Assembly: GCF_054482595.1 (NCBI RefSeq) | Contig: NZ_CM137008.1 | Reading direction: 5' to 3' (one strand) | Length of the DNA: 64,000 nt | Shown here: positions 10,267 through 25,994 of the stretch, one piece after another | Layout of the letters: each line of letters begins with the position of its first letter | How positions within the stretch are numbered: position 1 is the stretch's first letter | Translations under genes and position numbers: made by a program | The notes under the pieces: generated by a model | Databases searched by the model: none | What the model saw: the letters and a program-made list of their open reading frames with translations, nothing else | Told to the model about the DNA's origin: nothing

Positions 10267-10303
10267 GGTAACCCCAATGGATTAAAATAGATGGCGGAAA
10301 TAA

Positions 10304-10331: not shown

Positions 10332-10376
10332 TGATTACCTGTTCTGGATCAATAGATGGGCAGTCGGGTGGGCGGA

Positions 10377-10964
10377 TCAGTTAACTGAATCGATCCATTG
10401 CACACTGTCGGCGGTGAGCGTAAAGGGGGTGGGGGTGCAGATCGCAAGGCTTAAATTTTCTAGCTGACAATGGCTGACTGACAGCGAGGAGTGATAGGTG
10501 CTATCTACGCTGACGATTTGCCAGGCGCTGCCGCCACGCTGTTTAACGATGGCTTCTTTGCGCGTCCAGATGCGCCAGAACATTTCCAGTTGCTGATCAG
10601 GATGCACGGCGTCCATCTCAGCGTGTTCCCCGAGGCTGAATACGGCGTTCGCCAGCCAGCGCCAGTTGGCGCGCGGGCGAATCACTTCGATATCGCAGCC
10701 GACTTCGCCTTCATCACTCAACAGCAGAGCGATATCGTCACCGCTATGGCTTAAGTTGAACCATAGCGGCGTTTCCGGCGCGAATGCAGGTTTGCCTTGT
10801 TCGCCATAGATGATCTCCGGTAGCGGGGAAAGCGTGTGCGAAAGCAATGCACGCCCCGCCAGCCAGCGTTCGCGTCGTGGACCTTGCGGTGCTTGCTCGC
10901 GTAAACCCGGTGGCAGTGGAGCTGCGCTTAAGGTCGAAACTTTCCCCAGAACTATCCGATACAT
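10377..10964 (-). CDS. acpT: 4'-phosphopantetheinyl transferase AcpT
   Basis: 195-aa PPTase; start taken as ATG 10964 (MYRIVLGK), 1 nt after the stop of the upstream ketosynthase gene, so it is the last gene of the APE operon; the ORF track begins 120 nt further upstream. Confidence 0.9.
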   Translation of the reverse strand: MYRIVLGKVSTLSAAPLPPGLREQAPQGPRRERWLAGRALLSHTLSPLPEIIYGEQGKPAFAPETPLWFNLSHSGDDIALLLSDEGEVGCDIEVIRPRANWRWLANAVFSLGEHAEMDAVHPDQQLEMFWRIWTRKEAIVKQRGGSAWQIVSVDSTYHSSLSVSHCQLENLSLAICTPTPFTLTADSVQWIDSVN

Positions 10965-10965
10965 A

Positions 10966-12195
10966 TCAGGGCCAACGTTTAATGATGATGGATGTATTAA
11001 TGCCGCCAAAGGCAAAGTTGTTACTCTGCAAAAACTCACAATCAACCTTGCGGGCTTCATGCATGATGTAATCCAGCGCGCCACAATTCGGGTCTGGTTT
11101 ATTCAGGTTTAGCGTAGGCGCAAACCAACCTTCGCGCATCATTTGCAGACTCATCCAGGCTTCGAGCGCGCCACAGGCACCAAGCGTATGACCAAAATAA
11201 CTTTTCAGCGAGGAGAGCGGCACATTATCACCGTAAATGGTTGCTGTCGCCAGACTTTCTGCCATATCACCGCGATCGGTCGCCGTACCATGCGCTGAAA
11301 TATAGCCGATATCTTGTGCGCTTAACCCGGCGATTTTCAGCGATTGCTCCATACAATACTGCATGGTTTCGCGCTGCGGCTGGGTAATATGTGCCGCGTC
11401 GCAGTTAGTCGCAAAGCCGACGATTTCACCGTAAATGGTCGCGCCGCGCGCTTTGGCGTGCTCCAGTTCTTCGAGAATGAGCGTACCTGCGCCTTCACCA
11501 ATCACCAGCCCGTCGCGGTTTTCATCGAACGGTGAAGGTGTGGTTTTCGGCGCATCATTGTGCTGGCTGGTGGCGAAAAGCGTATCAAATACCGCTGCTT
11601 CTGAAGGACATAACTCTTCGGCACCACCAGCAACCATCACCGTTTGATAACCGTGGCGAATGGCTTCCCACGCATAACCGATTGCCTGGCTGCCGGAAGT
11701 ACAGGCGCTGGAGGTTGGGATCACCCGCCCGCGCAGGCCGAAAAAGAGGCCAGTATTAACGGCGGTGGTGTGCGGCATCATCTGCACATAGGTGGTGCCA
11801 GTGATGTTATTGGTGTGCTTTTCCGTCAGCATGGTGGCGAACTCGCTTACCGGGCCGGTACTGCCGGTCGATGAACCGTACGCAATGCCCGTTTCGCCGC
11901 TGGTTAATATCGGATCGCCAATCAACCCTGCCTGCTCTAACGCCAGCTCGCTGGCACGGGTCGACATTTGCGACACGCGGCCCATCGCACGGATACGCTT
12001 GCGGGTGTAGTGCTCCGGTAGCGTGAAATCATCAACAGGCGCGCCAAGCAGGGTGTGCAGCCCGTCGTAGACCTGCCACTCCGGCATTTTGCGCACCGCA
12101 TTTTCATACGCCAGTAAGCGTGCAGAAACGTCCTGCCAGTTTTCACCAAAGGCAGTCACGCCACCCATTCCTGTAATCACTACGCGACGTGTCAT
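10966..12195 (-). CDS. apeR: Beta-ketoacyl-ACP synthase (APE cluster KS)
   Basis: 409-aa KAS I/II-like protein with active-site Cys context (PTSSACTSGS) and the His pair; the ape letter is assigned by position in the 18-gene order as I recall it. Confidence 0.85.
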   Translation of the reverse strand: MTRRVVITGMGGVTAFGENWQDVSARLLAYENAVRKMPEWQVYDGLHTLLGAPVDDFTLPEHYTRKRIRAMGRVSQMSTRASELALEQAGLIGDPILTSGETGIAYGSSTGSTGPVSEFATMLTEKHTNNITGTTYVQMMPHTTAVNTGLFFGLRGRVIPTSSACTSGSQAIGYAWEAIRHGYQTVMVAGGAEELCPSEAAVFDTLFATSQHNDAPKTTPSPFDENRDGLVIGEGAGTLILEELEHAKARGATIYGEIVGFATNCDAAHITQPQRETMQYCMEQSLKIAGLSAQDIGYISAHGTATDRGDMAESLATATIYGDNVPLSSLKSYFGHTLGACGALEAWMSLQMMREGWFAPTLNLNKPDPNCGALDYIMHEARKVDCEFLQSNNFAFGGINTSIIIKRWP

Positions 12196-12923
12196 AACAT
12201 CCCTCCGTTGATGGAAATAACCTGGCGGGTGACGTAACCCGCAATATCAGACATTAAATAACTGGCAAGCCCGGCAACTTCTTCCGCCTGGCCCATACGT
12301 TTCATGGGGATCATCGACATTGCCTCTTTCAGAGCGCTCTCTTCCATTTCGATCATCCCGGTATCAATAAGCCCTGGCGCGATGCAATTGACGGTGATTT
12401 TGCGCTTTGCGAGTTCGATAGCCAGCGCTTTTGTTGCGCCGATAATTCCGGCTTTGGCAGCGCTGTAATTCACCTGGCCGCGATTGCCCATTACGCCGGA
12501 AACCGAGGACAGCGTGATGATGCGCCCACCCTGGCGCGCGCCGATCATTGGCATAATGCACGGCTGAATGACGTTGTAGAAACTGTCGAGATTGGTGTGG
12601 ATCACCGCATCCCAGTCGTCATCGCTTAAAGCCGGAAAAGCGGCATCGCGGGCGATCCCGGCGTTACTGACCACGCCGTACCAGGCACCGTGTTGCGCGA
12701 TCTCATGCTCCAGCACTTCCCGACACTGTTCGCGGTTTGCGACGTCGAAACTGAGCAAACGCCCGTTACCCCCGTTGGCGACAATGGCATTCAGCGTTTC
12801 CTGAGCGCCTGTGGCGTCACGGTGATAGTGAACGCCAATGTTAAAGCCGTCTGCCGCCAGTTGGCAGGCGATGGCGCGACCAATGCCTTTGCTGGCACCA
12901 GTAACCAGAACTGAACGACTCAT
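12192..12923 (-). CDS. apeQ: 3-oxoacyl-ACP reductase (SDR family, FabG-like)
   Basis: Rossmann motif TGASKGIGRA and SDR catalytic YSAAK; 4-nt overlap with the neighbouring gene. Confidence 0.85.
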   Translation of the reverse strand: MSRSVLVTGASKGIGRAIACQLAADGFNIGVHYHRDATGAQETLNAIVANGGNGRLLSFDVANREQCREVLEHEIAQHGAWYGVVSNAGIARDAAFPALSDDDWDAVIHTNLDSFYNVIQPCIMPMIGARQGGRIITLSSVSGVMGNRGQVNYSAAKAGIIGATKALAIELAKRKITVNCIAPGLIDTGMIEMEESALKEAMSMIPMKRMGQAEEVAGLASYLMSDIAGYVTRQVISINGGML

Positions 12924-13387
12924 CAGGACGCTCCTTGTTGAAACAGGGTGGTAAGTTCTTCCGCGGTCGGCTGGAAGGTGTTAATGCGGCCCGTCGCCTC
13001 GCCGTCGTTGATGCTGCACTCAAAACTGCCGAAGCGATCGTCCTGCATCAGCAGTTTGACGGTAATGGTCAGCGTCTGGCCTGCGGGCAGAATGCCAGCG
13101 GCGCAAAGCAATTCACGCGCGCCCAGTATCATCCCTAACTCAATACTGTTTTTGCCCTGCTGGTGGCGATGCCAGCCAGACCAGACGCCGACGGTTTGCG
13201 CCATCAGTTCAAGGGCAAACCAGCCAGGGAGATTGCCGTCCGGGTCGAGAAACGGTGCCAGTACGCCACTGGGCGAAACCGTCACGCGGCACACCGCGCT
13301 GTCATCGCTGACGCTCACCACGTCTTCCAGCAGTAACATGGGCGCGTCGTGGGGCAGATAAGCGCCGGGGGATAAATAGTGGCTCAC
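12923..13387 (-). CDS. apeP: Hotdog-fold 3-hydroxyacyl-ACP dehydratase
   Basis: 154-aa hotdog-fold protein; partners with the second dehydratase (apeI) in APE clusters. Confidence 0.75.
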   Translation of the reverse strand: MSHYLSPGAYLPHDAPMLLLEDVVSVSDDSAVCRVTVSPSGVLAPFLDPDGNLPGWFALELMAQTVGVWSGWHRHQQGKNSIELGMILGARELLCAAGILPAGQTLTITVKLLMQDDRFGSFECSINDGEATGRINTFQPTAEELTTLFQQGAS

Positions 13388-14562
13388 GAAACCCTCCCGA
13401 GCAGAATGCTGGCGTTATTGCCGCCAAAGGCGAAGGAATTGGACAGGATCACCGGACGTGCCAGCGGCTGCGGTTTTTCGATAATGCCGCAGGGTGGCAG
13501 CGTGGGATCGCGTGGCGACAGGCTGAAATCTTGGGCGGGCAGCGGTAAATCACGCTGTAAGATCAACATACTGATTGCTGCTTCGGTAATGCCCGCCGCG
13601 CCCAGCGTGTGGCCGGTCAAATGTTTGGTGGAGCTGCACGGTACGCGTTCGCCAAACAGGGCGTTAACCACCATCGATTCAATCTGGTCGTTGAGTTGCG
13701 TGGCGGTGCCGTGCAGGTTGATATAGCCGACGTCATCTGGCGTAAGCTGCGCATCGGTCAGTGCCTGATTAATGGCGCGGATCGCCCCTTCGCCCTGCGG
13801 ATGCGGGGCCGAAATATGGTAAGCGTCACTCGATTCACCAACGCCCAGCAATGCGATGGGCTGCGGTTCGCGGGTTAATAACATCAGCCCCGCGCCTTCG
13901 CCAATGGTGATACCTGCGCGGTCACGACCGAACGGCTGACATAAAGTTGGCGAGAGCGATTCGAGGCTGTGAAAACCGTTAATCGGCATCCGGCTCAGGG
14001 TGTCTGCGCCACCCACAATGGCGGCATCGACCAGCCCCGTCTCGATAAGCCTGCGCCCGCTGATCATCGCTCTGGCGCTGGAGGAGCAGGCGGTTGAAAG
14101 GGTATAGGCCGGGCCGTCGAGCGCCAGCCAGTGGCTGAGAAAACGCGACGGATCGCCAAGTTCCTGTTGTGCGTAGTGCCATGTGGTGCTCGGCAGCCCG
14201 TGGGTGCGCAGGTTAACGTGCGTGTCGCCTTCATGCAGGCCGGAGGTGCTGGTGCCAAGTACAATCGCGATGCGCTCGCGACCATATTTCGCTATAGCGT
14301 CATCAACCTGCGGCTGGAGCTGCGCCAGCGCCGCCAGCAGGATCTGATTGTTGCGCGAGCGATGCGCAGCGAATTTTTCCGGGATAAGCGGAAGCTCGCC
14401 ATCCACGCCAGCCAGGACCGCCTGCGGATGCCCCTGCAACCAGCCTGCGCGTGGGCGCATTCCGGGGGCGACACCGCGAGCCAGGTTGGCTGCGATTTCG
14501 TCAAGATTATTTCCCAGGGCGTTGATCATGCCGACGGCGGAAATATAAATCATATCAGTCAC
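13384..14562 (-). CDS. apeO: Beta-ketoacyl-ACP synthase (APE cluster KS)
   Basis: 392-aa KS-family protein with conserved Cys (LSTACSSSARA) and C-terminal SNSFAFGGNNA. Confidence 0.85.
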   Translation of the reverse strand: MTDMIYISAVGMINALGNNLDEIAANLARGVAPGMRPRAGWLQGHPQAVLAGVDGELPLIPEKFAAHRSRNNQILLAALAQLQPQVDDAIAKYGRERIAIVLGTSTSGLHEGDTHVNLRTHGLPSTTWHYAQQELGDPSRFLSHWLALDGPAYTLSTACSSSARAMISGRRLIETGLVDAAIVGGADTLSRMPINGFHSLESLSPTLCQPFGRDRAGITIGEGAGLMLLTREPQPIALLGVGESSDAYHISAPHPQGEGAIRAINQALTDAQLTPDDVGYINLHGTATQLNDQIESMVVNALFGERVPCSSTKHLTGHTLGAAGITEAAISMLILQRDLPLPAQDFSLSPRDPTLPPCGIIEKPQPLARPVILSNSFAFGGNNASILLGRVS

Positions 14563-15139
14563 CTAAGTATTGAATGGTGATGTGGTATTTAAAGACATGC
14601 TGTTCAATGCTGATTGGCACGCGTTTGCCCTTGCGATTCAGATAGGTGATTTCCGTGACCAGCTTGCCGCTGGCGTTACGCAGCTCGCGTTTGTCACCGT
14701 TGTCGCGAAGTGTCCAGCCAGTGGGAAGTTGCGGTTGCCAGGCGCTAATCGGCCAGTGGCTGAGCATTACGTCAGCCAGCACCTGACTTGCGGGCGGCAA
14801 CTGTGGGACGACGATGGATTGCTCGGCGCGTAGCCCTTGCGCATCGTAGGTCAACAGAAACAGGCGAATGCCGACCGACGACAGCCCGGCAAGGGTGATT
14901 TTCTGGTCGTCGGCGTTAAGCATCACTAACAGCGACTGGGTTTTGCCGTTGAAGCTGCCGGTCAACAGTTGCTGGGAATTGACGGCGGGTGAAATCCCTG
15001 GTGCCGGCAGCGTGATGCGCGTGCCAGGTTGCAGCCACGCCTGCGGGCGGCCTTCCTGTTCCGGTTGCGAGTGGCTACAGCCGGTGAGGATAAGCGTAGC
15101 GGTCAGGGCGAGCGCTCGCCAGAATGTGGGTTTGATCAT
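14555..15139 (-). CDS. apeN: Lipoprotein, APE-cluster associated
   Basis: Signal peptide with lipobox LTGC; conserved position between the KS and MMPL genes. Confidence 0.7.
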   Translation of the reverse strand: MIKPTFWRALALTATLILTGCSHSQPEQEGRPQAWLQPGTRITLPAPGISPAVNSQQLLTGSFNGKTQSLLVMLNADDQKITLAGLSSVGIRLFLLTYDAQGLRAEQSIVVPQLPPASQVLADVMLSHWPISAWQPQLPTGWTLRDNGDKRELRNASGKLVTEITYLNRKGKRVPISIEQHVFKYHITIQYLGD

Positions 15140-17454
15140 TTTTTTGTTCTCTTTTTATCGGGCATCGCCAGCGGCGAAAGCAGGAAGGCGGTGAAAATAC
15201 CGCTCACCAGCACAATGCCAAAACTGCTGATGGCCTGGGTGGCGCTGAATACCAGCATTCCCAGCGTCAGCAAGGTGGTGAGCATTGCCAGCGTGATCGC
15301 CAGTAGCGAAGTTAATGGTGTACCGCGCGGATTACTGAAAAACAGCGTGTAGTTGATGCCGATGCCAAGCACCAGCACCAGCGCCAGCAGCGAAAAGAGA
15401 TTCACCGCCTGCCCGCTCATCGCCAGCACCGCCAGACCACAACCCAGCGAAAGCACCGAAGGTACAAGGCTGATAAGCCCTTTGCGCCAGCCGAGACGGG
15501 CCACTGCGCCGCAGGCAATCACCGCCAGCGCCACCAGCAACAAGCCGGTTAAGACATAACGGTAAAGCGCGAACAACTCATCAAAGGTGCTTTTGCGATC
15601 AACCCAGGCAATGCCGCAAGGGTAATATGTGGCGATTTCCTGCATCAACGCGCTACTTTTAACCCCTTCAACCGGCACCAGTACGCCGCTTTCGCCGTTT
15701 TCCAGCGTCAGCCACAGCAGACGCCAGCCTTCACTGGCGGGGCTTGCCAGCCATTCATCAACGTTCACTGGCATGGCGTTGAGATCCGGGTTCACTGCCG
15801 TCAGCCCGGCATTTTGCAGCGCTTTTGTTACTGTCGGGGCCGCCGTTTTCAGCAGTTGTAAATCTTCCTCCTGCCGCGCAAGGGAGTTCAGCGGAATGGT
15901 GCGGTAGTTGCTGATAAGCCCCTCTTTTTTCGCATACTCAAGTGAGGCGGTATATTTCTCCAGTCGCCGCAATGTTTGCTGTGGCGAATCGCCGTAAACC
16001 ACAAACCATTTTTGATCGACGCTTTGTCCGGTCAGGGCGGTAATGGCTTTCTCCTGGGTCAGAATATGCTGCGGCAGCGCCTGTAACTGCGAGATATCGT
16101 CATCGACGCGCAGCATTGACATCCCCGCCAGCGAAAACAGCGCCAGCGCGACGGGCAGACCCAGCGACAGTTTTTTATTGCGCCGCCACGCTGCCAGCCA
16201 GCGCAGCATCAGCGCCATCGCCGGAACCGGACGCACCGGCAGGCCACGGCACAGCCACGGATGCCAGAACAGGACGGTCAGACAGGAGGCGCTCAACCCG
16301 ACGGCGGCAAAAATCGCCATCTGGCGAATGCCGGGGAAGGGGGCGAGCATCATAATCAGATATGCCGCCACGGTGGTGAGCAGCGCCAGCAGCAGGGCAT
16401 TGCGTACTTTCGCCAGGCTTTGCCACGGCGAAACGTCGTTGCCGTGCACCATCCGCTCGGTGAGATAATAGAGCGTGTAGTCAGCGGAAATGCCGATAAC
16501 GCTCATGCTCATCACCAGCGTCATCAGGTGTAATTCACCGAAAATCAATAAAGTGGCGACCGTTCCCGCCAGCGCGCCGATGCCGATGGAAATCACGCAA
16601 AGCAGCAACGGGCGCAAAGAGCGGAACACCGCCACAATCAGCAATATCACCCCCAGCAGCGTTGCCACGCCCAGGGTTGAGATATCCTGCTTCGCCTGTT
16701 GGCTGGCGTAATCGCTGTAAAACACCGTGCCGCGCGAAAGCAGCTGCGCCTGCGGGTAACGCGTTTTCAGATCCTTTTCCAGCGTATTCAGGGTCGTGAT
16801 GAGCTGGTGGGTTTGCTGCATATCAAACGACGATCCCGCCAGTTCACCGTGCAGCAGATACCAGTAGTTGCCCTGGGGATCCTGCGTCACCAGCCAGCCG
16901 TCCATCAGCCGCAAACGCTGGCCGTTTTTCGCCATCGCCAGCTGCGAGCCGCGCATTAACATCAGCGGATCGTTTTGCAGCTCCTTGCCGCTTACCCCGG
17001 AGAACGCAGAATAAAGCTGGGAGAGGATCCACTGCGCCTGCGCTTCGCCGCCGTTTTGCAGGCGCGCGCGGGTGTCGGGGTCAATCAGGCCGTTGCGGTG
17101 CTGCCAGAAAAACGCTCCCCACGCTTGCTGGCTGGCGGCATCCATTGGCCCTTTAACGTCGCCGAGCGCAGCGGATTTTTGCAGCAGCGTCAGCCACTCC
17201 TGAGCGACCCTGGGATTAGCCTCTTTACCGGGGCTGACCAGCCACACCAGTTGGCGGTCCAGACGCTGCATAAAGCCGTCATTCAGCGCTGGGGGAATAT
17301 CGCCCATAGCCTGTTTGGGTAACATAGCCAGCACGCTACTGTTCAGCCGTGATTGCGGCAGCAGGATCAGCAACGCCGCCGCCATGACCAGGCAGACTAG
17401 CCCCCATAACAGCGCGGGGCGTTTACTGGGCGGCAAAACGTTGGCGTTCGTCAT
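15136..17454 (-). CDS. apeM: MMPL/RND-family membrane exporter
   Basis: 772-aa protein with two hydrophobic bundles separated by periplasmic domains, typical of MMPL transporters. Confidence 0.8.
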   Translation of the reverse strand: MTNANVLPPSKRPALLWGLVCLVMAAALLILLPQSRLNSSVLAMLPKQAMGDIPPALNDGFMQRLDRQLVWLVSPGKEANPRVAQEWLTLLQKSAALGDVKGPMDAASQQAWGAFFWQHRNGLIDPDTRARLQNGGEAQAQWILSQLYSAFSGVSGKELQNDPLMLMRGSQLAMAKNGQRLRLMDGWLVTQDPQGNYWYLLHGELAGSSFDMQQTHQLITTLNTLEKDLKTRYPQAQLLSRGTVFYSDYASQQAKQDISTLGVATLLGVILLIVAVFRSLRPLLLCVISIGIGALAGTVATLLIFGELHLMTLVMSMSVIGISADYTLYYLTERMVHGNDVSPWQSLAKVRNALLLALLTTVAAYLIMMLAPFPGIRQMAIFAAVGLSASCLTVLFWHPWLCRGLPVRPVPAMALMLRWLAAWRRNKKLSLGLPVALALFSLAGMSMLRVDDDISQLQALPQHILTQEKAITALTGQSVDQKWFVVYGDSPQQTLRRLEKYTASLEYAKKEGLISNYRTIPLNSLARQEEDLQLLKTAAPTVTKALQNAGLTAVNPDLNAMPVNVDEWLASPASEGWRLLWLTLENGESGVLVPVEGVKSSALMQEIATYYPCGIAWVDRKSTFDELFALYRYVLTGLLLVALAVIACGAVARLGWRKGLISLVPSVLSLGCGLAVLAMSGQAVNLFSLLALVLVLGIGINYTLFFSNPRGTPLTSLLAITLAMLTTLLTLGMLVFSATQAISSFGIVLVSGIFTAFLLSPLAMPDKKRTKK

Positions 17455-18028
17455 CGGTCAGTTGCGCTGGCGTCAGTTGATGTTGGGTAAGAGCAATATC
17501 GGTGCGATCGCCCTGTTTATCATTAAGTTGAATGCTCTCCAGATAGGTTTTCCCGGCGAGATCGATGGTGTTGAAAATTTTATCCAGCGGCGTGGTGGTC
17601 GGCGTCAGGCGCAGCGTCCAGCGGCCTTCGCCTTTGTCAGCAAATTCGACGCGGAAGTTTTGTTCCAGCACTTTGCGATCGGCCTGGAACAGCGCGCGCA
17701 GCAGGTGGTTAAACTGGAACATCTGCGGGTTGTTTTCTGCCGTGATGATTTGCGGCGGCTGACCGTTGATCACCTGCACCATGCGTTTATCATCCAGCAA
17801 TAGCTGCATGGGGAACGGTGAGGTTTGATCCCACAATAACCCCTGGTCGCGGGCGATCAACATCTGACCCTGAGATCGCAGCGGCTGCGGCAGATCTTTA
17901 ATCGTCCGGGTTTGATCAAAATGGGCGCGGATCACCGGTTGTTCGGTAAAGCGTTGCTGAAGATCGTCCAGGGTCAGGGCGCTCACAAACGGGCTAATCA
18001 GCAGCGCCAGCAGCGGTAAAAATTTCAT
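17423..18028 (-). CDS. apeL: LolA-like outer-membrane lipoprotein carrier
   Basis: 201-aa secreted protein with signal peptide (MKFLPLLALLISPFVSA) and LolA-fold-like length/composition. Confidence 0.7.
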   Translation of the reverse strand: MKFLPLLALLISPFVSALTLDDLQQRFTEQPVIRAHFDQTRTIKDLPQPLRSQGQMLIARDQGLLWDQTSPFPMQLLLDDKRMVQVINGQPPQIITAENNPQMFQFNHLLRALFQADRKVLEQNFRVEFADKGEGRWTLRLTPTTTPLDKIFNTIDLAGKTYLESIQLNDKQGDRTDIALTQHQLTPAQLTDDERQRFAAQ

Positions 18029-18447
18029 GGTTTGACTCCCATGCGTTCAAACAGAATATCGGGGCTGACAAAGCACAGTTCGCGACTTTGCTCGTCGACC
18101 GCGACCTGAATGGTGTATCCGGTGGTGGCGCGTTTGCCCGTTTCGGCATCGAAAATCTGATAGCCAATCCGCAGACGGTTTTCGAACTCTTCGATATGCG
18201 CACGCACGCGGATGCGTTGCTCAAAGGTGAGGGCGTGGCGATATTTCACCCGCGCATCGACCACTGGCCACAAATAACCGGACTCTTTCATCTGCCGATA
18301 GCCGTAATTGAACTGGTTGAGCAGCGCCTCGCGGGCCACTTCAAAGTAGCGAAAATAGTTACCGTGCCAGGCCACGCCCATCATATCGACGTCGTGAAAG
18401 GGAATGGTCAGCTCGACTTCAGCGGTAAATCGGGGATCGTTAAGCAC
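18025..18447 (-). CDS. apeK: Hotdog-fold acyl thioesterase (4HBT-like)
   Basis: 140-aa protein resembling the YbgC/4-hydroxybenzoyl-CoA thioesterase family. Confidence 0.75.
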   Translation of the reverse strand: MLNDPRFTAEVELTIPFHDVDMMGVAWHGNYFRYFEVAREALLNQFNYGYRQMKESGYLWPVVDARVKYRHALTFEQRIRVRAHIEEFENRLRIGYQIFDAETGKRATTGYTIQVAVDEQSRELCFVSPDILFERMGVKP

Positions 18448-18450
18448 CCT

Positions 18451-20127
18451 TTACTCCTTGTCCTGAATTTCCGGCAGTTGCCAGAAATCGAAAAAATTAA
18501 ACCAGTCGAGGGGCGACTGGAGCGCGTAATGTTCCAGACGCGCGGCGTAGTGGTCGATAGCGTTTTGCAGCGCCTGCTGGCGTTCGCCACGCGGCAGTTG
18601 CAGCGGGTCGGCAAAGCTTTCGCAGTGAATATGCAGCTTGCCGTGCTGGCGTAGGGCGAAAATCAGATTCACTGGGCAGCGCAAAATAGAGGCGAGAATA
18701 AACGGCCCCTGTGGGAAGGGCGCAGGCTGGCCCATAAACGGACTCCAGCAGACGCGCCAGTCGCCGCCGCGTTGCGGGGTGACGGCGATGCGGTCACCGA
18801 CAATCGCCACCCATTCGCCGTTATCCAGCTTCTCTTTCAGCAGGATGGCGGTTTCTGGGCCGATATCTGTTACCGGCATCAGGTTAATGCCTGCCTGAGG
18901 AGCCATCTCCTGCATTATCTGTTTAAAGCGTTGGGCGTTTTCGCTAAACACCAGCGCGTTAATGGTTTTGTAGCCCTGAATTTTTGCCAGCGCCCGGCAC
19001 ACTTCCACATCGCCAAGATGCGAGGCCAGCAGCAATTTGCCGCGCGGATCGCGGACGTCAAGCGCCGCTTCTGCGCCTGGCGCAAACAGCACATCACGCC
19101 CCAGTTGTAGCTCGCCGCGCCAGCTGGCGATTTTGTCGAGCATGGCATTACCGAAACGTAGAAAGTGCTGATAGCTGTTGAGTTTTGCCGCCTGTGGTTG
19201 ATGCTGTCGTACACGGGCGAGCCAGTCTTGCGACGCTTTGCGCGCACGAGAAGCAGTGAGCCAGTAGACGCCCACCACCGGGTAAAGCAGCGCGCTAAAC
19301 GCCGTTCTTCCCAGCAGACGCCAGACCAGCAGCATCAGGCGCATTCCCCATAATCCTTTCACTTCACTCTGCCGCGCCCAGTGGCTGGAAGAGCGGCGCA
19401 TCAGCAGTGAAGGAATACGCGGTAACATGCCGAAAAATAGACGCGTGTGCATGAGCGAGATGCGGACGTTATCTTTCAGGGCATCAAAATGCGAAAGCCC
19501 GTCCAGTGGATAGGTGACGCGGGTCGGCACGAAATAGCTGGTGTTTCCCTGCCAGTAGAGGCGCACCATCACTTCAGTGTCGAAATCCATCCGCTTGCCG
19601 ATGGTGGCGTGTTTTGCCAGTTGCAGCGTTGGCGCAACCGGATAAACGCGAAAGCCGCACATGCTGTCTTTCAGTTGCAGGGAGAGCGTTTCGATCCATA
19701 CCCAGACGTGGGTGACCCAGCGCCCGTAAAGCCGTGAGCGGGGGATGGAGTCATCGTAAATTGGCTGGCCGGAGATCAGCGCCGCAGGGTGTTGTTCAGC
19801 GACTGCCAGCAGTTTGGGGATATCTTCAATCGCATGTTGACCGTCAGCATCCACCTGCACTGCATGGCTGAACCCTGCGTCTGCCGCTGCCTGTAAGCCA
19901 CGCATCACTGCCGCGCCTTTACCTGCGTTTTCTGCTAAGCGAATTAAGGTCACGCCAGGCTGTTCGCTAACCAGATTATCCAGTTGCTGTTGCGTGGCGG
20001 CATCGCTGCCGTCGTCCACCACAATACAGGGGAGATTAAATGGCTTAAGACGCGCCAGCACGCCCGGCATCATCGCGCCGTGGTTATAGCAGGGGATCAA
20101 CACGCAGGGAGAAAAGTTTACCGACAT
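18451..20127 (-). CDS. apeJ: Fusion of family-2 glycosyltransferase and LpxL/HtrB-like lipid acyltransferase
   Basis: N-terminus has the GT2 signature (IPCYN...VVDDGSD); C-terminal half resembles lauroyl/myristoyl lipid A acyltransferases. Confidence 0.75.
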   Translation of the reverse strand: MSVNFSPCVLIPCYNHGAMMPGVLARLKPFNLPCIVVDDGSDAATQQQLDNLVSEQPGVTLIRLAENAGKGAAVMRGLQAAADAGFSHAVQVDADGQHAIEDIPKLLAVAEQHPAALISGQPIYDDSIPRSRLYGRWVTHVWVWIETLSLQLKDSMCGFRVYPVAPTLQLAKHATIGKRMDFDTEVMVRLYWQGNTSYFVPTRVTYPLDGLSHFDALKDNVRISLMHTRLFFGMLPRIPSLLMRRSSSHWARQSEVKGLWGMRLMLLVWRLLGRTAFSALLYPVVGVYWLTASRARKASQDWLARVRQHQPQAAKLNSYQHFLRFGNAMLDKIASWRGELQLGRDVLFAPGAEAALDVRDPRGKLLLASHLGDVEVCRALAKIQGYKTINALVFSENAQRFKQIMQEMAPQAGINLMPVTDIGPETAILLKEKLDNGEWVAIVGDRIAVTPQRGGDWRVCWSPFMGQPAPFPQGPFILASILRCPVNLIFALRQHGKLHIHCESFADPLQLPRGERQQALQNAIDHYAARLEHYALQSPLDWFNFFDFWQLPEIQDKE

Positions 20128-20471
20128 AGGCGGATCTTCCCGCTACTGGCGGTGTGGCGGGCGTCACCGTCGTGACGCTGATAGCTAAAGCTCAGAATCT
20201 GGCGTTCTTCCTGCCAGTTAAGCGCGAGCGTGACGCGGTTTTCCGGCAGCAACGGAGACTGGAATTTTATGTTCTGAATGGAGTGAAAACGCCAGCCAGG
20301 CGCGAGCAGATTGAGCGCGTAGCTCATCGCCCAGTCGATTTGCGCAACTCCTGGGAGTAATGGTTGCACGGCAAAATGACCGCGAAACCAGAACAGATCC
20401 GCCCTGAGATGCAGAACAATTTCAAGGTGATTCGTTTGTGCCTGATGGCGCTCGATTTCATGGGGCTTCAT
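20118..20471 (-). CDS. apeI: Hotdog-fold dehydratase (FabA/FabZ-like)
   Basis: FabZ-like core (FRGHFAVQPLLPGV); start placed at ATG 20471 (MKPHEIERH) with AGGAG 7 nt upstream; the ORF track begins at a GTG 30 nt further upstream. Confidence 0.75.
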   Translation of the reverse strand: MKPHEIERHQAQTNHLEIVLHLRADLFWFRGHFAVQPLLPGVAQIDWAMSYALNLLAPGWRFHSIQNIKFQSPLLPENRVTLALNWQEERQILSFSYQRHDGDARHTASSGKIRLCR

Positions 20472-21819
20472 GAAATAACTCCTGTAATTGCGCATAGACA
20501 CGCTTGTTCATACTGTTTACTGGCATTTCATCAATAACGCGCCAGTAACGCGGAATAGCAACTGGCTCCAGCGTCGGGCGCAGTAAACGCCGCCAGGTCA
20601 TTTCCTGGCTATGCCCGCCGCCGTTCTGCCATTGCAGATGAGCTTCGTCATCCAGCACCAGCAAAACGCCTATGCTCTGACGCCCGCCGCGCGTAACGGG
20701 AACTGCCGCCGCCTCGCGAATGCCGTCCAGCGCCAGTAGACGTTGTTCTACTTCCTGGAGTGAAATACGTTTTTCTTCAATCTTAACGATGCGCCCACGA
20801 CGCCCCATCAGATGGAACTGACCATCTTCGCTAAGCTGTAAGATATCGTCGAGTAACAGGCCGTTATCTTCCGCTATCAGCGGTGAAAAGAGGCGAAAGG
20901 CATCGCCTTCGGCTTGGAACTGCATACCTGGGAGGGGTAGCCAGCGGCGTTGCTCTTGTTCGCGGTAACGCCAGGCGATGACGCCGGTTTCCGTGCTGCC
21001 GTAGATTTCATCAGGCCAGACGCGCAGCCAGCTTGCGGTGTGTTGTACATCCTGCCACGGCAGCTCACCGCCAGCAGAGAGAAGCACCTGAACGGGTGGC
21101 GGAGAAAGCTGGGTATCCAGGCGCTTCAAAAATGCCGGGCTGCTGATGAAGATATAGCGATGCTGATGACTCAACGCGGCAAACTGTTCGACATACCAGA
21201 GCATGGCGGCGTGCAGCGGTAATCCCAACGCCATGGGCAGGAAAACACGAAAAGTCAGGCCGTACAAATGCTGCGGCAATACGGAACCGACGACACGACA
21301 ACCCGCCAGACGTGCGCCTAATCGTTCAGCCAGCAGTTCTGCTTCACGATCCAGCAAATGAACAGGTTTAATCACCCGTTTCGGCTGTCCCGTGGAACCG
21401 GAGGTAAACAGCTCGATAAAAGCCTCTGGCGCTATAGCGGCAAAGGTGAAGGATTGTGTCGCGACTTGTGGGGAACTTGCTACCAACAGCCATGAACCTT
21501 GCCAGTTAAGTTCGCTGTCGCTAAGCACACCATCGAACAGTTCACGTTGCTCGTTAAGCTGGATGACACGGTTATGCCCCGGAAGCACCGGTGTTTTTCC
21601 GGCGTGTAGCGTGGCGAGCAGGGCAACGATAAACAGATAGCTGTTCTCAAAGCACAGCGCCCAGCGTTCACCCGGCTGTTGCTGCAAGCGGCAGATAAGT
21701 TGCGCGACATCGTGACGCAAATCGCCCAGCGTCCAGGTGCTTTCGTCCAGCCACGCAATGGGCGTGTCATCAGGGCGTGGCGCAGTCAGCCAGCGTGCAA
21801 GCGGTAAGGTCTGCTTCAT
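20458..21819 (-). CDS. apeH: AMP-dependent acyl/aryl-ACP ligase (adenylating starter-unit enzyme)
   Basis: ANL-superfamily motifs (TSGSTGQPK, YGSTETG); start placed at ATG 21819 forming an ATGA overlap with the upstream gene. Confidence 0.8.
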   Translation of the reverse strand: MKQTLPLARWLTAPRPDDTPIAWLDESTWTLGDLRHDVAQLICRLQQQPGERWALCFENSYLFIVALLATLHAGKTPVLPGHNRVIQLNEQRELFDGVLSDSELNWQGSWLLVASSPQVATQSFTFAAIAPEAFIELFTSGSTGQPKRVIKPVHLLDREAELLAERLGARLAGCRVVGSVLPQHLYGLTFRVFLPMALGLPLHAAMLWYVEQFAALSHQHRYIFISSPAFLKRLDTQLSPPPVQVLLSAGGELPWQDVQHTASWLRVWPDEIYGSTETGVIAWRYREQEQRRWLPLPGMQFQAEGDAFRLFSPLIAEDNGLLLDDILQLSEDGQFHLMGRRGRIVKIEEKRISLQEVEQRLLALDGIREAAAVPVTRGGRQSIGVLLVLDDEAHLQWQNGGGHSQEMTWRRLLRPTLEPVAIPRYWRVIDEMPVNSMNKRVYAQLQELFHEAP

Positions 21820-22397
21820 GCGCGATCTCTTTTCATCACCTGACGGCGCACCAGCCATTCACCAGCCATTAATGTTCCCATCAACAAATAAGCAATCATG
21901 CCGTTCCAGGCGGTCCATAACGACATATCGGCATAAAGCGCGGTAAAGAGGGCAATTCCACCGTTAATGATGAAAAAGCCGCACCAGATTTGCGTGACGT
22001 GGCGGGTATAGCGCACGCCCTTTTCCGGGAGGTCTGGCTCCTGCAACCGCGCCAGCCGCTCAACTATCGGCATTGCCGACCACAGCGAACCGCCAAAAAC
22101 CGCCAGCATGACCGCGTTAACCACTACCGGGTAAAACAGCAGTAGCTGGTGCGTTTTCAACATAAAGCTGGCGACACATAATGCGATGCCCACGACAGCG
22201 ACGAGTTGCGTGACGGCTTGTAAAGGCCCCGCCTGGCGACGGGTCTGGCGCAGACGCAACAAAAGCAGCAACGCCATTAGCGGTAACAGCCAGTGCAGGC
22301 CGTTATGCGCTAAGCCAAACCAAATCACAAACGGCCAGGCGAGCAGCAATAATCCAGTCAGCAGCTTAATCATCGGTAGCGAGCGAATGCCCGACAT
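21816..22397 (-). CDS. apeG: Integral membrane protein, APE-cluster associated
   Basis: 193-aa hydrophobic protein with several predicted TM helices; conserved position. Confidence 0.6.
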   Translation of the reverse strand: MSGIRSLPMIKLLTGLLLLAWPFVIWFGLAHNGLHWLLPLMALLLLLRLRQTRRQAGPLQAVTQLVAVVGIALCVASFMLKTHQLLLFYPVVVNAVMLAVFGGSLWSAMPIVERLARLQEPDLPEKGVRYTRHVTQIWCGFFIINGGIALFTALYADMSLWTAWNGMIAYLLMGTLMAGEWLVRRQVMKRDRA

Positions 22398-22401
22398 CAG
22401 A

Positions 22402-22653
22402 TCAGGCTTCTTGTAGCAGGCGTTCTACAGCCTCGACGACATCCTGGACTGTACGCACGGCTTTAAACTCTTCCGGCTTGATTTTCTTACCGGTTTTCTT
22501 TTGCAGGTGCACAATCATGTCAACGGCGTCGATGCTGTCCAGTTCCAGATCTTCGTACAGGCGCGCTTCAGGTTTGATGTCCTGCGGATCGATTTCAAAC
22601 AGCTTAACCAGCAGGGCTGAGACTTCCTGATAGACGGTTTGTTGTTCTGTCAT
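22402..22653 (-). CDS. apeF: Acyl carrier protein
   Basis: 83-aa acidic protein with phosphopantetheine attachment motif LELDSIDAVDM. Confidence 0.85.
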   Translation of the reverse strand: MTEQQTVYQEVSALLVKLFEIDPQDIKPEARLYEDLELDSIDAVDMIVHLQKKTGKKIKPEEFKAVRTVQDVVEAVERLLQEA

Positions 22654-22664
22654 GATGGCTTTCC

Positions 22665-22922
22665 TCAGGCACGTTGCGCAGCAATGAAAGAGGCCAGAGT
22701 GGCGACGGAGAAAAAGTGCTGACGCATCTCTTCGCTTTCCGCAGAGAGCACGATGCCGTACTCATTTTTTACTGCCAGTCCCAGTTCCAGGGCATCGATA
22801 GAGTCCAGCCCTAAACCGTCGCCAAACAGCGGCGCGTCGGTATCGATATCATCAGGCGTCAACTCGTCCAGATTGAGGGTGCTGATGATGAGGTTTTTAA
22901 TTTCCAGATAAAGCGCTTGCAT
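22665..22922 (-). CDS. apeE: Acyl carrier protein
   Basis: 85-aa protein with attachment motif LGLDSIDALEL; tandem with a second ACP. Confidence 0.85.
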   Translation of the reverse strand: MQALYLEIKNLIISTLNLDELTPDDIDTDAPLFGDGLGLDSIDALELGLAVKNEYGIVLSAESEEMRQHFFSVATLASFIAAQRA

Positions 22923-23736
22923 TATTTATTCCTGAGAGAGGTAAACAACCTTGTTGTAATTGAAGCAAAAGATGCCGGTTTAACTGCCTTGCTGCCAGCG
23001 CCGGTTCTTGTGAAGTTGCATCGTAAAATTTATTGATTTCAACCCGACCATGGACTGCAACCGTAAAAAACGGCCGGTCAGGTGGAACGTCATACCATTT
23101 ACTTTGTTTATCCAGCAGATGCTCGCTACAGCCGATCGTCACGATGCGTAAATCGCTGGCACAGCGCACGGCAATATTCGCCGCCCCGCGCTGCAGCGTC
23201 ATTTTTTCACCGGGCTTCGTTCGCGTGCCTTCGGGGAAAATCAGGATAGTGTCACCCTGTGCCAGTCGCTGTTGGCAGCGGGGTAACAGGGTTTCAGCTT
23301 CGCTGTTGATTAAATAATCTGCCGCCCGCACGACGCCGCCAAGAAAAGGATTTTTTAACAGCGCGCTTTTCACCAGGCAGTCAGTTTCTGGCATGACTGA
23401 CGCCAGCAGCACGTAATCGATCAGCGTGGGATGATTGGCTACGACGAGGCAACCGCGTTCCTGACGTAAAATTTCAGCGCCATCAATACGATAATCCAGC
23501 ACGCCAAGCCCTTTCGCGACAGTTAAAAACAGGCGAAAACTGGCGGCAATGCTGCGACGCGCCAAACGACGGCGGCGGGAAGTATCCCACACCAAAACTA
23601 ACAATATGTTAAACCACACGACAGAAAGCAGCAGGCCGCCGAGACCAAACAGGGCAAAACATAACCCGGTCATGACCAGTCGCCAGGTCCACTCCAGACG
23701 TGACAGCAGCTTACTCATCCACGGCTCCAGCGCCAC
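22897..23736 (-). CDS. apeD: Lysophospholipid (PlsC-like) acyltransferase
   Basis: N-terminal TM segment followed by an acyltransferase core with the HPTLIDY and FPEGTR motif pair. Confidence 0.75.
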   Translation of the reverse strand: MALEPWMSKLLSRLEWTWRLVMTGLCFALFGLGGLLLSVVWFNILLVLVWDTSRRRRLARRSIAASFRLFLTVAKGLGVLDYRIDGAEILRQERGCLVVANHPTLIDYVLLASVMPETDCLVKSALLKNPFLGGVVRAADYLINSEAETLLPRCQQRLAQGDTILIFPEGTRTKPGEKMTLQRGAANIAVRCASDLRIVTIGCSEHLLDKQSKWYDVPPDRPFFTVAVHGRVEINKFYDATSQEPALAARQLNRHLLLQLQQGCLPLSGINNASALSGN

Positions 23737-24437
23737 TGTACGCGCTCGCCAGGCAGTGAAAATGTGTCCGCATTTTGTAAATAGTGCTGTAAAAACAACA
23801 TGCTTTGCGGCAGTGTTGTTTCATTACCCGCAATGGCTGACTGCGTTTCACATTGCCACTCATCGCCAGCTTCAATCACCAGCGCGACGGCGTACGGCCA
23901 GGTCGGCATTTCTGCGGGCAGTTGTGGATGATAGAACTCAGGCAGAAAGCCATCAAAATCGACCATCAGCACGCGCTGGTATCCCGCTTGTAACAGGCTA
24001 AGCACTTCACACAAACCTTGCTGGAAAGTGTCGCGACCAGCAGAAAGCGATGACGAAACGATCGGCTGTTTGGCCGCAATGGTCAGGTTACCCACGGAAG
24101 AGTTGTGTACTGAAAGTGCAAAGTCGGTCGGAGAAAGCGCCTGTTCGGTTGCCAGTGCATGAACAATGCGGTAATTGCGCTCCAGTTCGCCATGACGACT
24201 GGTATACAAAACGGCGTCTGGCTGATGGCGGCGTAGCATTGCCAGACCGCATTCAACAGCCAGTTTGCTGCCTGAACTGAGGCGGCGGGCGGTCATCATT
24301 GGCAGTTCACTTAATTTTGCCAACGGCGCGGCAGGGTCAATCGCCCACGGCTGGCGCGACCATGCTTGCCATTGCTGCGCTTCGCTAAGTCCAGGCGCCA
24401 GTGCCTGCCAGTCGGTAATATTTAATGTAAATTTCAT
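23715..24437 (-). CDS. apeC: Ketosynthase-like chain-length-factor protein (no intact KS catalytic triad seen)
   Basis: 240-aa KS-related protein lacking an obvious active-site Cys context; start placed at ATG 24437 (MKFTLNI). Confidence 0.65.
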   Translation of the reverse strand: MKFTLNITDWQALAPGLSEAQQWQAWSRQPWAIDPAAPLAKLSELPMMTARRLSSGSKLAVECGLAMLRRHQPDAVLYTSRHGELERNYRIVHALATEQALSPTDFALSVHNSSVGNLTIAAKQPIVSSSLSAGRDTFQQGLCEVLSLLQAGYQRVLMVDFDGFLPEFYHPQLPAEMPTWPYAVALVIEAGDEWQCETQSAIAGNETTLPQSMLFLQHYLQNADTFSLPGERVQWRWSRG

Positions 24438-24477
24438 CAACGCGCGCCCGCGGTAAACCAAAATTATTAAGTGACGA

Positions 24478-25545
24478 TTATTTCTTTTGGCATATCAAAA
24501 GTGTATGCCCAACGCCTAAATTATCGTGGCGCTCTGCTACCTGGAATCCTGCTTTATTCAGATAGTCGTAAAATTTCTCTGCACTATAGAAACGGCTGTT
24601 ACCGTTTGCCATGCAGGTAAAATAAAGTGAGGACGCGTTCAGGCTAAATGATGCTGCTTCAAACCGCTGCGCATCCCAGAACAACTCCATGATGCAAACT
24701 TTTGCGCCAGGCTTCATTACGCTGGCAATTTTGCTGAGTATGCTAATTATTTGTTCGGGTGAAAAACAGTCTAAAAATTGGCTCATCCACCAGATATCAG
24801 CCTCGCCCGGTAATGGGGCATCGCTTAGCATATCCACCGCATGGAAATCTATGCGATCAGAAAAACCTGCATTCGCGATATTTTCTTTCGCTAGTACGAT
24901 TTGTTGTGGCAGATCTAATAACGTCACGGCGATGTTTTCATTGTATTTGCAGCAACGCAAAGCCCACTTACCCGTATTGCCGCCTACATCGTACAATGTT
25001 GTGGGGTTGTTGGCGAATACATAAGGCAGTGCGGCGTTAAATGCGCCATCTGAATAGTAATGATCAAACGCAAACCAGCTTTCACGAGCGGCGTCTGGTA
25101 ATTGCGAAAGTGCCGGATATATCGTCGACCAGTCGCCAAATACTTTTAACCCGGAAGGTTTTCCTTCATTGAGTGAATCGGCGAGGAAGAAGAGCCCCTG
25201 GTAACAGACATCCTGGGTGAAATCCATATTCACGCGAGTCATAGTGTCATGCAGGAGGTAATGACCGATTTTCGCCAGGTAATAAATTCCCTCTTTACAG
25301 GTAATAATTCGCCCGCTTAAGCCCATATCTAACAGAACGCTGGCAGCATATTCGTTGATATGGCTATGTTCGGTGATATCAGCCAGCGTTGCGCCATGTT
25401 TGCCTTGCCGATCCAGATATGAAAGTACACCCGCATTACGTAGGCAGAGTGCTGTTTGAAAAAGCATAGGGGCAAAGGCAATGCGTTGAGCTTCGGTAAT
25501 CGCATCCAGTGCGCTAAGAGAATCCTGTTCGTACATGTTGGGCAC
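24478..25545 (-). CDS. apeB: SAM-dependent methyltransferase (O-methyltransferase-like)
   Basis: Class I methyltransferase fold (VGGNTGKWA...LLDLP); an alternative ATG start lies at 25536. Confidence 0.75.
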   Translation of the reverse strand: MPNMYEQDSLSALDAITEAQRIAFAPMLFQTALCLRNAGVLSYLDRQGKHGATLADITEHSHINEYAASVLLDMGLSGRIITCKEGIYYLAKIGHYLLHDTMTRVNMDFTQDVCYQGLFFLADSLNEGKPSGLKVFGDWSTIYPALSQLPDAARESWFAFDHYYSDGAFNAALPYVFANNPTTLYDVGGNTGKWALRCCKYNENIAVTLLDLPQQIVLAKENIANAGFSDRIDFHAVDMLSDAPLPGEADIWWMSQFLDCFSPEQIISILSKIASVMKPGAKVCIMELFWDAQRFEAASFSLNASSLYFTCMANGNSRFYSAEKFYDYLNKAGFQVAERHDNLGVGHTLLICQKK

Positions 25546-25604
25546 AACCTGTTAAGAGGGAATTAAATTATTATCGGACCGCAACGGCCCGACTTTAGGA
25601 AGAA

Positions 25605-25994
25605 TTATAAATCTGCGCCCGCTGACAAATTCAGTTGAATATCTTTGTCGAGATTGCGGACCCAGCGATTGTAGTTTTTATGAATTTGTCCGCCTGACGC
25701 TTGTAGGTTCTGGCTATTTTCATAATTGATATCGTAGCTGGATGCCGTGTAGTTAATGCGTATTTCCGCTGAATGATCGCGTGACTGTTGACGTGCTTTA
25801 ATTATGCCTTGTCCGGCTTCGGACATAATCCATTTGCGTTCAACGCCAGCTTTCAGAATCGCTTTTTTCACTTGTTCCTGGGTATGACCAGCGCTGACGG
25901 TTGAGTGAACCTGATCAATTGGCGCAGTACGCGCGCAACCTGCTAAAGCACCCACAACAGCAATAGCCGCAAACCATTTCATGTAATGTCTCAT
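25605..25994 (-). CDS. apeA: Lipoprotein, first gene of the APE operon
   Basis: Signal peptide with lipobox LAGC; an alternative start (MKWFAAI) lies at 25982; followed upstream by a 380-bp AT-rich promoter region. Confidence 0.6.
   Translation of the reverse strand: MRHYMKWFAAIAVVGALAGCARTAPIDQVHSTVSAGHTQEQVKKAILKAGVERKWIMSEAGQGIIKARQQSRDHSAEIRINYTASSYDINYENSQNLQASGGQIHKNYNRWVRNLDKDIQLNLSAGADL

Follow-up and report, generated by a model that had tools for sequence, protein, structure and literature searches.

To which lipid is the pigment chain of the Escherichia coli aryl-polyene (APE) cluster attached, and by which route does the product reach the outer membrane? Few biosynthetic gene clusters are as widespread in Gram-negative bacteria as those for aryl polyenes, and APE pigments protect against oxidative stress and influence biofilm formation in uropathogenic E. 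coli. Both questions are raised by the interval 14555-20127 of a 64,000-nt stretch of DNA, here called the window, to whose positions the coordinates refer. A first-pass annotation made from the letters alone had read this interval as an envelope-targeting module, in which a polyene chain is transferred onto a glycolipid or lipid A-like acceptor and carried outward by a Lol-like route. The five genes of the interval are apeJ-apeK-apeL-apeM-apeN, which form the part of the E. coli APE cluster for lipid attachment and export. As the likely mechanism we infer that ApeJ attaches the chain to a lipid and that ApeM, ApeL and ApeN relay the product to the outer membrane.

Identity of the apeJ-apeN genes

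In E. coli CFT073, apeJ to apeN of the APE cluster are the genes c1194 to c1190 (Cimermancic 2014; Johnston 2021, PMC8253772). The window and CFT073 are collinear in a blastn comparison, with 96% nucleotide identity over apeR-apeJ, and the cluster as a whole is collinear with c1186-c1204. At the protein level the identity is 97.8% for ApeJ, 100% for ApeK, 99.5% for ApeL, 96.8% for ApeM, and 96.9% for ApeN. Since the five genes are near-identical to those of CFT073, the published genetics apply to this interval.

Johnston 2021 describes ApeJ as a glycosyltransferase/acyltransferase, ApeK as a thioesterase, ApeL as LolA-like, ApeM as an RND protein, and ApeN as a DUF3261/LolB-like protein (PMC8253772). 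Every ape gene of CFT073 has been deleted, and mutants in apeD and apeJ build up late pigmented intermediates, the apeK deletion leads to early, immature APE acids, and the apeA deletion leaves pigmentation near the wild type (PMC8253772). In the model proposed there, the anchor is “a glycolipid, potentially lipid A”, and export is Lol-like (PMC8253772).

The four open reading frames named in the first-pass annotation all lie where it placed them, on the minus strand, and only the fifth gene, apeK (18025-18447), was overlooked. Its functional model was already known as a hypothesis, published for the CFT073 genes (PMC8253772) and for Xenorhabdus (bioRxiv 10.1101/2020.12.19.423268). No new entity is described here, since names, deletion mutants, and a model already exist for these genes and the lipid anchor is known from a sister cluster. 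Our literature search on ApeJ, ApeL, ApeM, and ApeN found no mechanistic work later than the papers of 2020-2021, apart from a 2026 preprint on expression.

We scanned one genome per species and obtained 78 loci with an ApeJ relative, in which the Ape partners were identified by iterated hidden Markov model searches. The loci span Enterobacterales, Vibrio, Aeromonas, Shewanella, Burkholderiales, Alphaproteobacteria, Myxococcota, Helicobacter, Fibrobacteres, and Gemmatimonadota. ApeG is detected in 73 of them, ApeL in 71, ApeM in 70, ApeK in 68, ApeN in 55, and ApeA in 29. The order D-G-H-I-J-K-L-M-N-O is found in 45 of the 78 loci, with near variants in most others, and the recurrence of J-K-L-M-N in most loci shows that these are not chance open reading frames.

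ApeJ and the lipid acceptor

The only product solved so far is the aryl-polyene lipid APEL of Xenorhabdus doucetiae, whose cluster is described as highly similar to that of CFT073 (Grammbitter 2020, bioRxiv 10.1101/2020.12.19.423268). In APEL the aryl polyene is esterified on the 6-OH of N-acetylgalactosamine (GalNAc), and the anomeric phosphate of the GalNAc leads to a glycerol carrying a C14/C16 acyl chain and a conjugated C26:5 3-OH acyl chain (bioRxiv 10.1101/2020.12.19.423268). The X. doucetiae apeJ mutant accumulates acyl-cFA-glycerol-3-phosphate, and the authors propose that ApeJ adds GalNAc and then the APE chain, with ApeL, ApeM, and ApeN in export (bioRxiv 10.1101/2020.12.19.423268).

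The N-terminal part of ApeJ matches the GT2 family over residues 8-131 (Pfam ID PF00535; E=3.7e-20). The top NCBIfam match is PpgS, a polyprenyl-phospho-GalNAc synthase (2.8e-14, far below its cut-off). Searched alone against solved structures, ApeJ matches are restricted to DPMS, ArnC, and GtrB, and a profile of 44 ApeJ sequences finds DPMS at 4e-14, GtrB at 2e-12, and ArnC at 2e-11 in the PDB. In this profile the segment D93-A-D95-G-Q97-H98 (DADgQH) aligns to DADLQH of DPMS, and D39, D93, D95, Q97, and H98 are invariant. The best Foldseek matches of the ApeJ AlphaFold model (pLDDT 89.7) are again GtrB and ArnC. A long helix at 216-243 and further helices at 255-336 are predicted, none of which attains the hydropathy threshold for a transmembrane (TM) segment. 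Given these matches the domain groups with glycosyltransferases whose acceptor is a lipid monophosphate, a predicted type that fits the sugar-1-phosphate-glycerol linkage.

The same relatives could also point to a GT2 domain that makes a polyprenyl-phosphate sugar as the donor in a subsequent reaction, instead of glycosylating a glycerolipid phosphate directly, as all the closest ones (DPMS, GtrB, ArnC, PpgS) use polyprenyl phosphate and the alpha anomer reported for APEL is unlike direct inverting transfer. We regard this as quite unlikely. Sugar and glycerol are joined in the product by a sugar-1-phosphate-glycerol phosphodiester, an intermediate of the phosphatidic acid type builds up in the apeJ mutant (bioRxiv 10.1101/2020.12.19.423268), the RefSeq annotation of the cluster has no GT-C type second transferase, and the GT2 domain is fused to, or its gene overlaps, an acyltransferase working on the same sugar.

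The C-terminal half of ApeJ is more divergent. A direct PDB sequence search with the E. coli domain finds nothing, and the NCBIfam search yields only a weak match to a PIM-acyltransferase (E=0.0014). Residues 240-558 have 3054 relatives among 1.84 billion representatives, and PF03279 (Lip_A_acyltrans) is matched by 59 of 69 homologues with 32-48% identity, at best with 3.9e-19. A profile of 69 relatives of the domain finds the Acinetobacter LpxM structure (PDB ID 5kn7) at E=9.7e-7 and PatA at 0.03. The conserved S-H-L-G-N/D-x-E segment aligns on the catalytic HFGTWE of LpxM, the motif mutated in the E127A structure (PDB ID 5knk). In ApeJ itself this motif reads S-H370-L-G-D-V-E375, with H370 invariant and E375 conserved in at least 90% of the 44 sequences; the invariant residues of the domain are H370, G372, D445, and R446. 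Foldseek matches the domain model to PatA with a TM-score of 0.70 (E=2e-10) and to LpxM (E=2.5e-10). Transitive homology, profile, and predicted fold thus support a remote acyltransferase of the PatA/LpxM family, and with it the LpxL-like reading of this half in the first-pass annotation, on which Pfam is silent for the E. coli sequence.

PatA acylates the mannose 6-OH on phosphatidylinositol mannoside. With this sugar 6-O-acyltransferase as the best structural match, the ApeJ domain agrees with a GalNAc 6-OH acceptor. Membership of Lip_A_acyltrans, as assigned here from sequence profiles, does not imply a lipid A acceptor. Lipid A or a similar glycolipid as the acceptor, with the ApeJ C-terminal domain acting as an LpxL/LpxM and a dedicated outer-membrane route being needed, is nevertheless suggested by this family assignment and by LpxM being the best sequence-profile match among the solved structures, and the possibility was raised by Johnston et al. 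(PMC8253772). We consider it highly improbable. The Xenorhabdus product is a GalNAc-phosphate-glycerolipid, the PatA fold match is at least as good, the fused GT2 domain is of the lipid-phosphate type, lipid A is already served by Msb/Lpt, and the cluster encodes its own PlsC-type ApeD.

The acceptor proposed at first pass is therefore supported as a glycolipid, reached through a GT2-acyltransferase fusion, but not as a lipid A-like one: APEL carries its chain on the 6-OH of GalNAc-1-phosphate-glycerol. The accompanying remark, which ranked the acceptor as the least understood component of these clusters, is out of date for the family, with APEL solved in X. doucetiae, and can now apply at most to E. 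coli itself.

ApeJ is not always a fusion. About half of the best 150 representatives of the C-terminal domain are stand-alone proteins of 300-335 aa, and the two that we looked up are found in an APE cluster, just after a separate GT2 gene (251-279 aa) with overlapping frames. Split loci combine a GT2 gene of 251-279 aa with a Lip_A_acyltrans gene of 307-326 aa (positions 7234-8981 of locus L081, 3020-4836 of L082, and 3391-5062 of L083). By sequence comparison, a conserved GT2/acyltransferase pair exists in two arrangements, of which the fusion is one, and the fused or overlapping arrangement supports both activities acting on the same intermediate. In locus L083, ApeH and ApeI are also fused, and a gene for an aromatic ammonia-lyase is present.

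ApeK and the export proteins ApeL, ApeM, and ApeN

ApeK matches the NCBIfam families MenI (2.7e-21) and YbgC/FadM (1.3e-16), which places it among the 4HBT/YbgC-type hotdog thioesterases.

ApeL starts with a Sec (SPI) signal peptide, MKFLPLLALLISPFVSA, with predicted cleavage before L; this is the single N-terminal hydrophobic segment, and there is no lipobox. Most of the 71 ApeL homologues, where starts could be placed, likewise have signal-peptide-like N-termini without a lipobox. The Xenorhabdus preprint calls ApeL cytoplasmic (bioRxiv 10.1101/2020.12.19.423268); contrary to this, the predicted signal peptide makes ApeL a periplasmic protein. ApeL matches the NCBIfam family lolA (TIGR00547) with 1.6e-16 and 60.4 bits, below the equivalog cut-off of 112, and the flexirubin LolA2 family with 8.7e-15 and 54.6 bits, below the cut-off of 125. 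Falling short of the LolA equivalog cut-off, it is a LolA-family paralogue and not LolA itself. The PDB matches are a “LolA family” entry (PDB ID 8t5j; E=1.2e-22) and the Xanthomonas LolA (PDB ID 8orn; 0.002). The 8t5j entry is an ApeL-type protein from structural genomics, for which our literature search found no paper. Arg43 of E. coli LolA was considered as a marker of ApeL and dropped, the corresponding position being variable among ApeL homologues.

ApeN has DUF3261 as its sole Pfam family (2.5e-39). Neither an NCBIfam match nor sequence similarity to LolB is found, and the PDB sequence search gives nothing meaningful. The lipobox (L-T-G-C21) is followed by Ser at +2 and is present in 48 of the 55 ApeN homologues. 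Ser at this position is of the outer-membrane sorting type in E. coli. Foldseek finds agreement with the LolB-type fold at modest TM-scores of 0.40-0.48, and the ApeN model has the unclosed 11-strand beta-barrel with internal helices that characterises this fold. The literature label “LolB-like” is thus supported at the level of the predicted fold.

LolA and LolB being lipoprotein carriers, and the cluster encoding the lipoproteins ApeA and ApeN, it could be a lipoprotein that ApeL and ApeN traffic (ApeA or ApeN itself), or APE could be the lipid anchor of ApeA, an alternative mentioned by Johnston et al. (PMC8253772). We judge this very unlikely: ApeA is found in 29 loci against 71 for ApeL, pigmentation without apeA is near the wild type (PMC8253772), E. 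coli already has LolABCDE for lipoproteins, and the partner of ApeL and ApeN is an RND lipid exporter and not an ABC transporter.

The hydropathy profile of ApeM places TM1 at 11-38, a loop at 39-255, a TM cluster at 256-450, a second loop at 451-625, and a second TM cluster at 626-765. The Pfam MMPL match (E=3.6e-8) spans only residues 252-395. NCBIfam matches are HAE3 (1.7e-13; 49.5 bits against a cut-off of 352) and HpnN (8e-13; 47.3 bits against a cut-off of 752), and in the PDB the HpnN structure (PDB ID 5khn) is matched with E=1.7e-6. Of 67 homologues with 17-80% identity, 66 keep D325-Y326, which lies in the region of TM4, and 66 keep Y702, in that of TM10. By sequence, these residues resemble the Asp-Tyr proton relay of MmpL3 and may act as one, and they favour proton-driven export over the published ATP-driven idea involving ApeG. 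The ApeG product has no family match in the NCBIfam search.

For RND proteins of the HpnN type, a shuttling of hopanoids via their own periplasmic tunnel has been proposed. ApeM alone might similarly carry the lipid across the periplasm, with ApeL and ApeN as accessories in assembly or quality control, and ApeN is indeed undetectable in about 30% of the loci. This is unlikely in our view, as ApeL is kept in 71 of the 78 loci and adjoins ApeM with overlapping frames, ApeN combines a lipoprotein anchor with a LolB fold, as would suit an acceptor at the outer membrane, and flexirubin clusters have a similar LolA2/LolB2 pair (PMC11885536).

Taken together, the RND protein, the LolA-like protein, and the lipoprotein would form a plausible path of export. 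The Lol-like route of the first-pass annotation fits this path except at the inner membrane, where the component is RND and not LolCDE. Its LolA-like periplasmic carrier is supported by the predicted ApeL signal peptide and the LolA-family matches, and the lipoprotein it listed is ApeN, whose role as a LolB-like partner it did not recognise.

Proposed mechanism

In the relay model that we prefer, ApeD, working on the cytoplasmic side of the inner membrane, would make diacyl-glycerol-3-phosphate. To this lipid phosphate the ApeJ GT2 domain would add a sugar (GalNAc in Xenorhabdus), and the PatA/LpxM-like domain, via the H370/E375 dyad, would move the APE chain from its carrier protein to the sugar 6-OH. 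ApeK may edit or release acyl thioesters. ApeM, as a proton-driven RND protein, would extract the finished glycophospholipid from the inner membrane and hand it to periplasmic ApeL, and the LolB-like lipoprotein ApeN would receive the lipid and insert it into the outer membrane.

Several points weigh against this model. The activities assigned to all five proteins are predictions, and the presumed location of the E. coli pigment in the outer membrane is carried over from xanthomonadin. The E. coli ApeJ C-terminal domain has no Pfam match, PF03279 included, even at E<=10, and ApeN is detectable in only 55 of the 78 loci. Clean deletions of apeL and apeN were not obtained in CFT073, so their phenotypes may be polar (PMC8253772). 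A 2026 preprint still speaks of “an anchor molecule” for the E. coli APE.

A further point against the model concerns the stereochemistry of the sugar linkage. GT2 enzymes of the DPMS/GtrB/ArnC type invert, and UDP-alpha-GalNAc should yield a beta product. The anomeric proton of APEL has a J(H1,H2) of 2.8 Hz, which gives alpha-GalNAc-1-phosphate (bioRxiv 10.1101/2020.12.19.423268). By comparison with its relatives, the reported configuration conflicts with the inverting chemistry expected of the DPMS-type GT2 domain of ApeJ. The explanation may be a different donor or chemistry, an exceptional domain, or an assignment needing revision. The conflict does not appear to be discussed in the literature, whose users should be aware that the reported anomeric configuration is inconsistent with the chemistry of the GT2 family.

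The combined proposition that ApeM-ApeL-ApeN is an RND-loaded, Lol-type glycolipid relay and that ApeJ, with a GT2 domain of an inverting family, makes an alpha-linked sugar-1-phosphodiester is more doubtful than the general model, and we put it forward tentatively. Both the RND-driven relay and the GT2 exception are implicit in the published models. If true, a Lol-type relay would serve a non-protein lipid, and the ApeJ GT2 domain would be a mechanistic exception in its family. Our analysis adds to the published work a PatA-like over a lipid A-like reading of the predicted acyltransferase, the lipid-phosphate type of the GT2 domain, the putative LolB fold of DUF3261, a periplasmic location for ApeL, and the candidate proton-relay motif of ApeM.

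Genomic context

The coordinates of the genes and domains are given in Table 1.

Table 1. Positions of the apeJ-apeN genes, their domains, and surrounding features in the window
Feature	Position	Strand	Details
apeN: DUF3261 outer-membrane lipoprotein, predicted LolB-like fold	14555..15139	-	194 aa; lipobox LTG/C at Cys21, Ser at +2
apeM: putative RND-superfamily lipid exporter (MMPL/HAE3/HpnN-like)	15136..17454	-	772 aa; ~12 TM helices, two large periplasmic loops
apeL: predicted periplasmic LolA-family carrier	17423..18028	-	201 aa; Sec signal peptide, predicted cleavage after VSA at residue 17
apeK: 4HBT/YbgC-type hotdog thioesterase	18025..18447	-	140 aa; NCBIfam
apeJ: GT2-acyltransferase fusion	18451..20127	-	558 aa
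apeJ N-terminal domain, residues 1-246: GT-A/GT2, lipid-phosphate (DPMS/GtrB/ArnC/PpgS) type	19390..20127	-	DAD-x-QH metal/nucleotide motif D93-H98
apeJ C-terminal domain, residues 258-558: predicted PatA/LpxM-family (Lip_A_acyltrans) acyltransferase	18454..19356	-	catalytic-type motif H370-x4-E375
Aryl-polyene cluster apeR..apeA, accessory island of ~15 kb between acpT and yhhT	10966..25994	-	RefSeq, GC, collinearity with CFT073
apeD: LPLAT/PlsC-type acyltransferase, outside 14555-20127	22897..23718	-	NCBIfam AGP_acyltrn 3.4e-15; role upstream of ApeJ from literature
apeG: small polytopic membrane protein, outside 14555-20127	21816..22397	-	hydropathy; in 73/78 loci alongside export genes
apeI, apeH, apeG	20118-22397
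apeA	25605-25994
apeR	10966-12195
acpT: phosphopantetheinyl transferase, immediately downstream of apeR	10377..10964	-	RefSeq annotation

The gaps among the five genes from apeN to apeJ are -4, -32, -4, and +3 nt. With neighbours overlapping or separated by just 3 nt, we take the genes to be translationally coupled within one long operon. They sit within the run of 18 co-directional genes that makes up the cluster, which has a GC content of 0.55-0.59, against 0.48-0.50 in the flanks. A scan of 10000-26600 for promoters and terminators shows no convincing internal signal within the apeJ-apeN interval; the 17 promoter-like and 28 terminator-like sites compare with 10.5±3.6 and 20.5±5.4 in shuffled sequence. 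As these counts are near those of shuffled sequence, we claim no separate transcription unit for apeJ-apeN.

Several complete E. coli chromosomes match the interval at 100% identity, and it occurs in 825 of 5426 complete genomes. For one such matching genome, RefSeq gives the five products as DUF3261 protein, MMPL transporter, LolA family protein, acyl-CoA thioesterase, and GT2 protein. The cluster neighbours in RefSeq are ketosynthases, a ketoreductase, dehydratases, two acyl carrier proteins (ACPs), an AMP-binding enzyme, and a chain-length factor, as well as a PlsC-type acyltransferase, a methyltransferase, and a lipoprotein. The apeJ-apeN genes are thus embedded among genes of the type II polyketide/fatty acid synthase kind (ketosynthase, chain-length factor, ketoreductase, dehydratase, two ACPs, and acyl-ACP synthetase), and likewise in the 78 loci. 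A reading of the locus as a defence system was rejected, as PADLOC models gave zero matches on seven cluster proteins.

In E. coli K-12, yhhT and acpT are directly adjacent and the cluster between them is missing, so that K-12 keeps acpT without an APE cluster. In the window acpT begins 1 nt past the apeR stop codon; at this distance it behaves as the final gene of the operon, and it probably activates both ACPs of the cluster. Elsewhere in the window, the sole Rfam match at the gathering threshold is RyhB (57536-57600, plus strand, 83 bits), far from the cluster and in a region (54-58 kb) of low GC content (0.42).

Comparison with known systems

The CFT073 cluster has the identical gene order J-K-L-M-N, and the functional model published for it is that of the first-pass annotation. 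The two copies differ in their location: that of CFT073 is part of an integrase-linked island with insertion sequence remnants near 1.14 Mb (region compared: 1.127-1.159 Mb) and has no acpT beside it, whereas the window copy sits between acpT and yhhT. The same APE cluster therefore uses two distinct E. coli chromosomal sites. The copies are also mosaic, with 66% protein identity for ApeH, 72% for ApeI, 81% for ApeG, and 64% for ApeA, against 94-100% for most others, and the nucleotide homology disappears over 20572-21569. ApeH is the starter-activating acyl-ACP synthetase. Its two alleles divide E. coli into 569 genomes of the window type, including O157:H7, and 259 genomes of the CFT073/Nissle type. 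All published E. coli APE genetics used the CFT073 version, and extrapolation should take into account that the window holds the acpT-linked variant and not the one studied. The X. doucetiae cluster differs from that of E. coli in having a solved product.

The enzymes DPMS, GtrB, ArnC, and PpgS share with the ApeJ N-terminal domain the GT-A fold, the DAD-x-Q(H) motif, and, as predicted for ApeJ, the addition of a sugar to a lipid monophosphate. ApeJ differs from them in showing, by hydropathy, no clearly hydrophobic C-terminal transmembrane hairpin, in its probable acceptor, which would be diacylglycerol phosphate and not polyprenyl phosphate, and in the alpha product reported. PatA and LpxM/LpxL (PF03279) have a common fold and an aligned HX4E motif with the C-terminal domain, and PatA also puts its acyl chain on the 6-OH of a glycerophospholipid-anchored sugar, as in the proposed APE transfer. 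The identity to PatA and LpxM is only 15-18%, and the ApeJ domain lies below the Pfam threshold, is fused to a GT2 domain, and probably uses an aryl-polyene-ACP donor rather than acyl-CoA or fatty acyl-ACP.

ApeM resembles HpnN, the hopanoid transporter, and MmpL3/MmpL7 in its RND topology, its MMPL/HpnN sequence match, and the TM4 Asp-Tyr pair, but the sequence similarity is very low, the curated cut-offs are missed widely, and the setting is that of a diderm Gram-negative cell. MmpL7 works with the LolA-fold lipoprotein LppX, and systems of this type export a polyketide-derived envelope lipid with a LolA-fold partner, as proposed for the ape proteins. The flexirubin cluster of Flavobacterium johnsoniae has a dedicated LolA/LolB-like pair, LolA2/LolB2, inside an aryl-polyene-type pigment cluster (PMC11885536). 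ApeL lies below the flexirubin LolA2 cut-off, and the role of LolA2/LolB2 is itself putative (PMC11885536). The Lol pathway (LolCDE-LolA-LolB) shares with the ape system a periplasmic LolA-family carrier and an outer-membrane lipoprotein of the LolB fold. In place of the LolCDE-type ABC transporter the ape system has an RND protein as an HpnN/MmpL-like engine, and its cargo would be a glycolipid.

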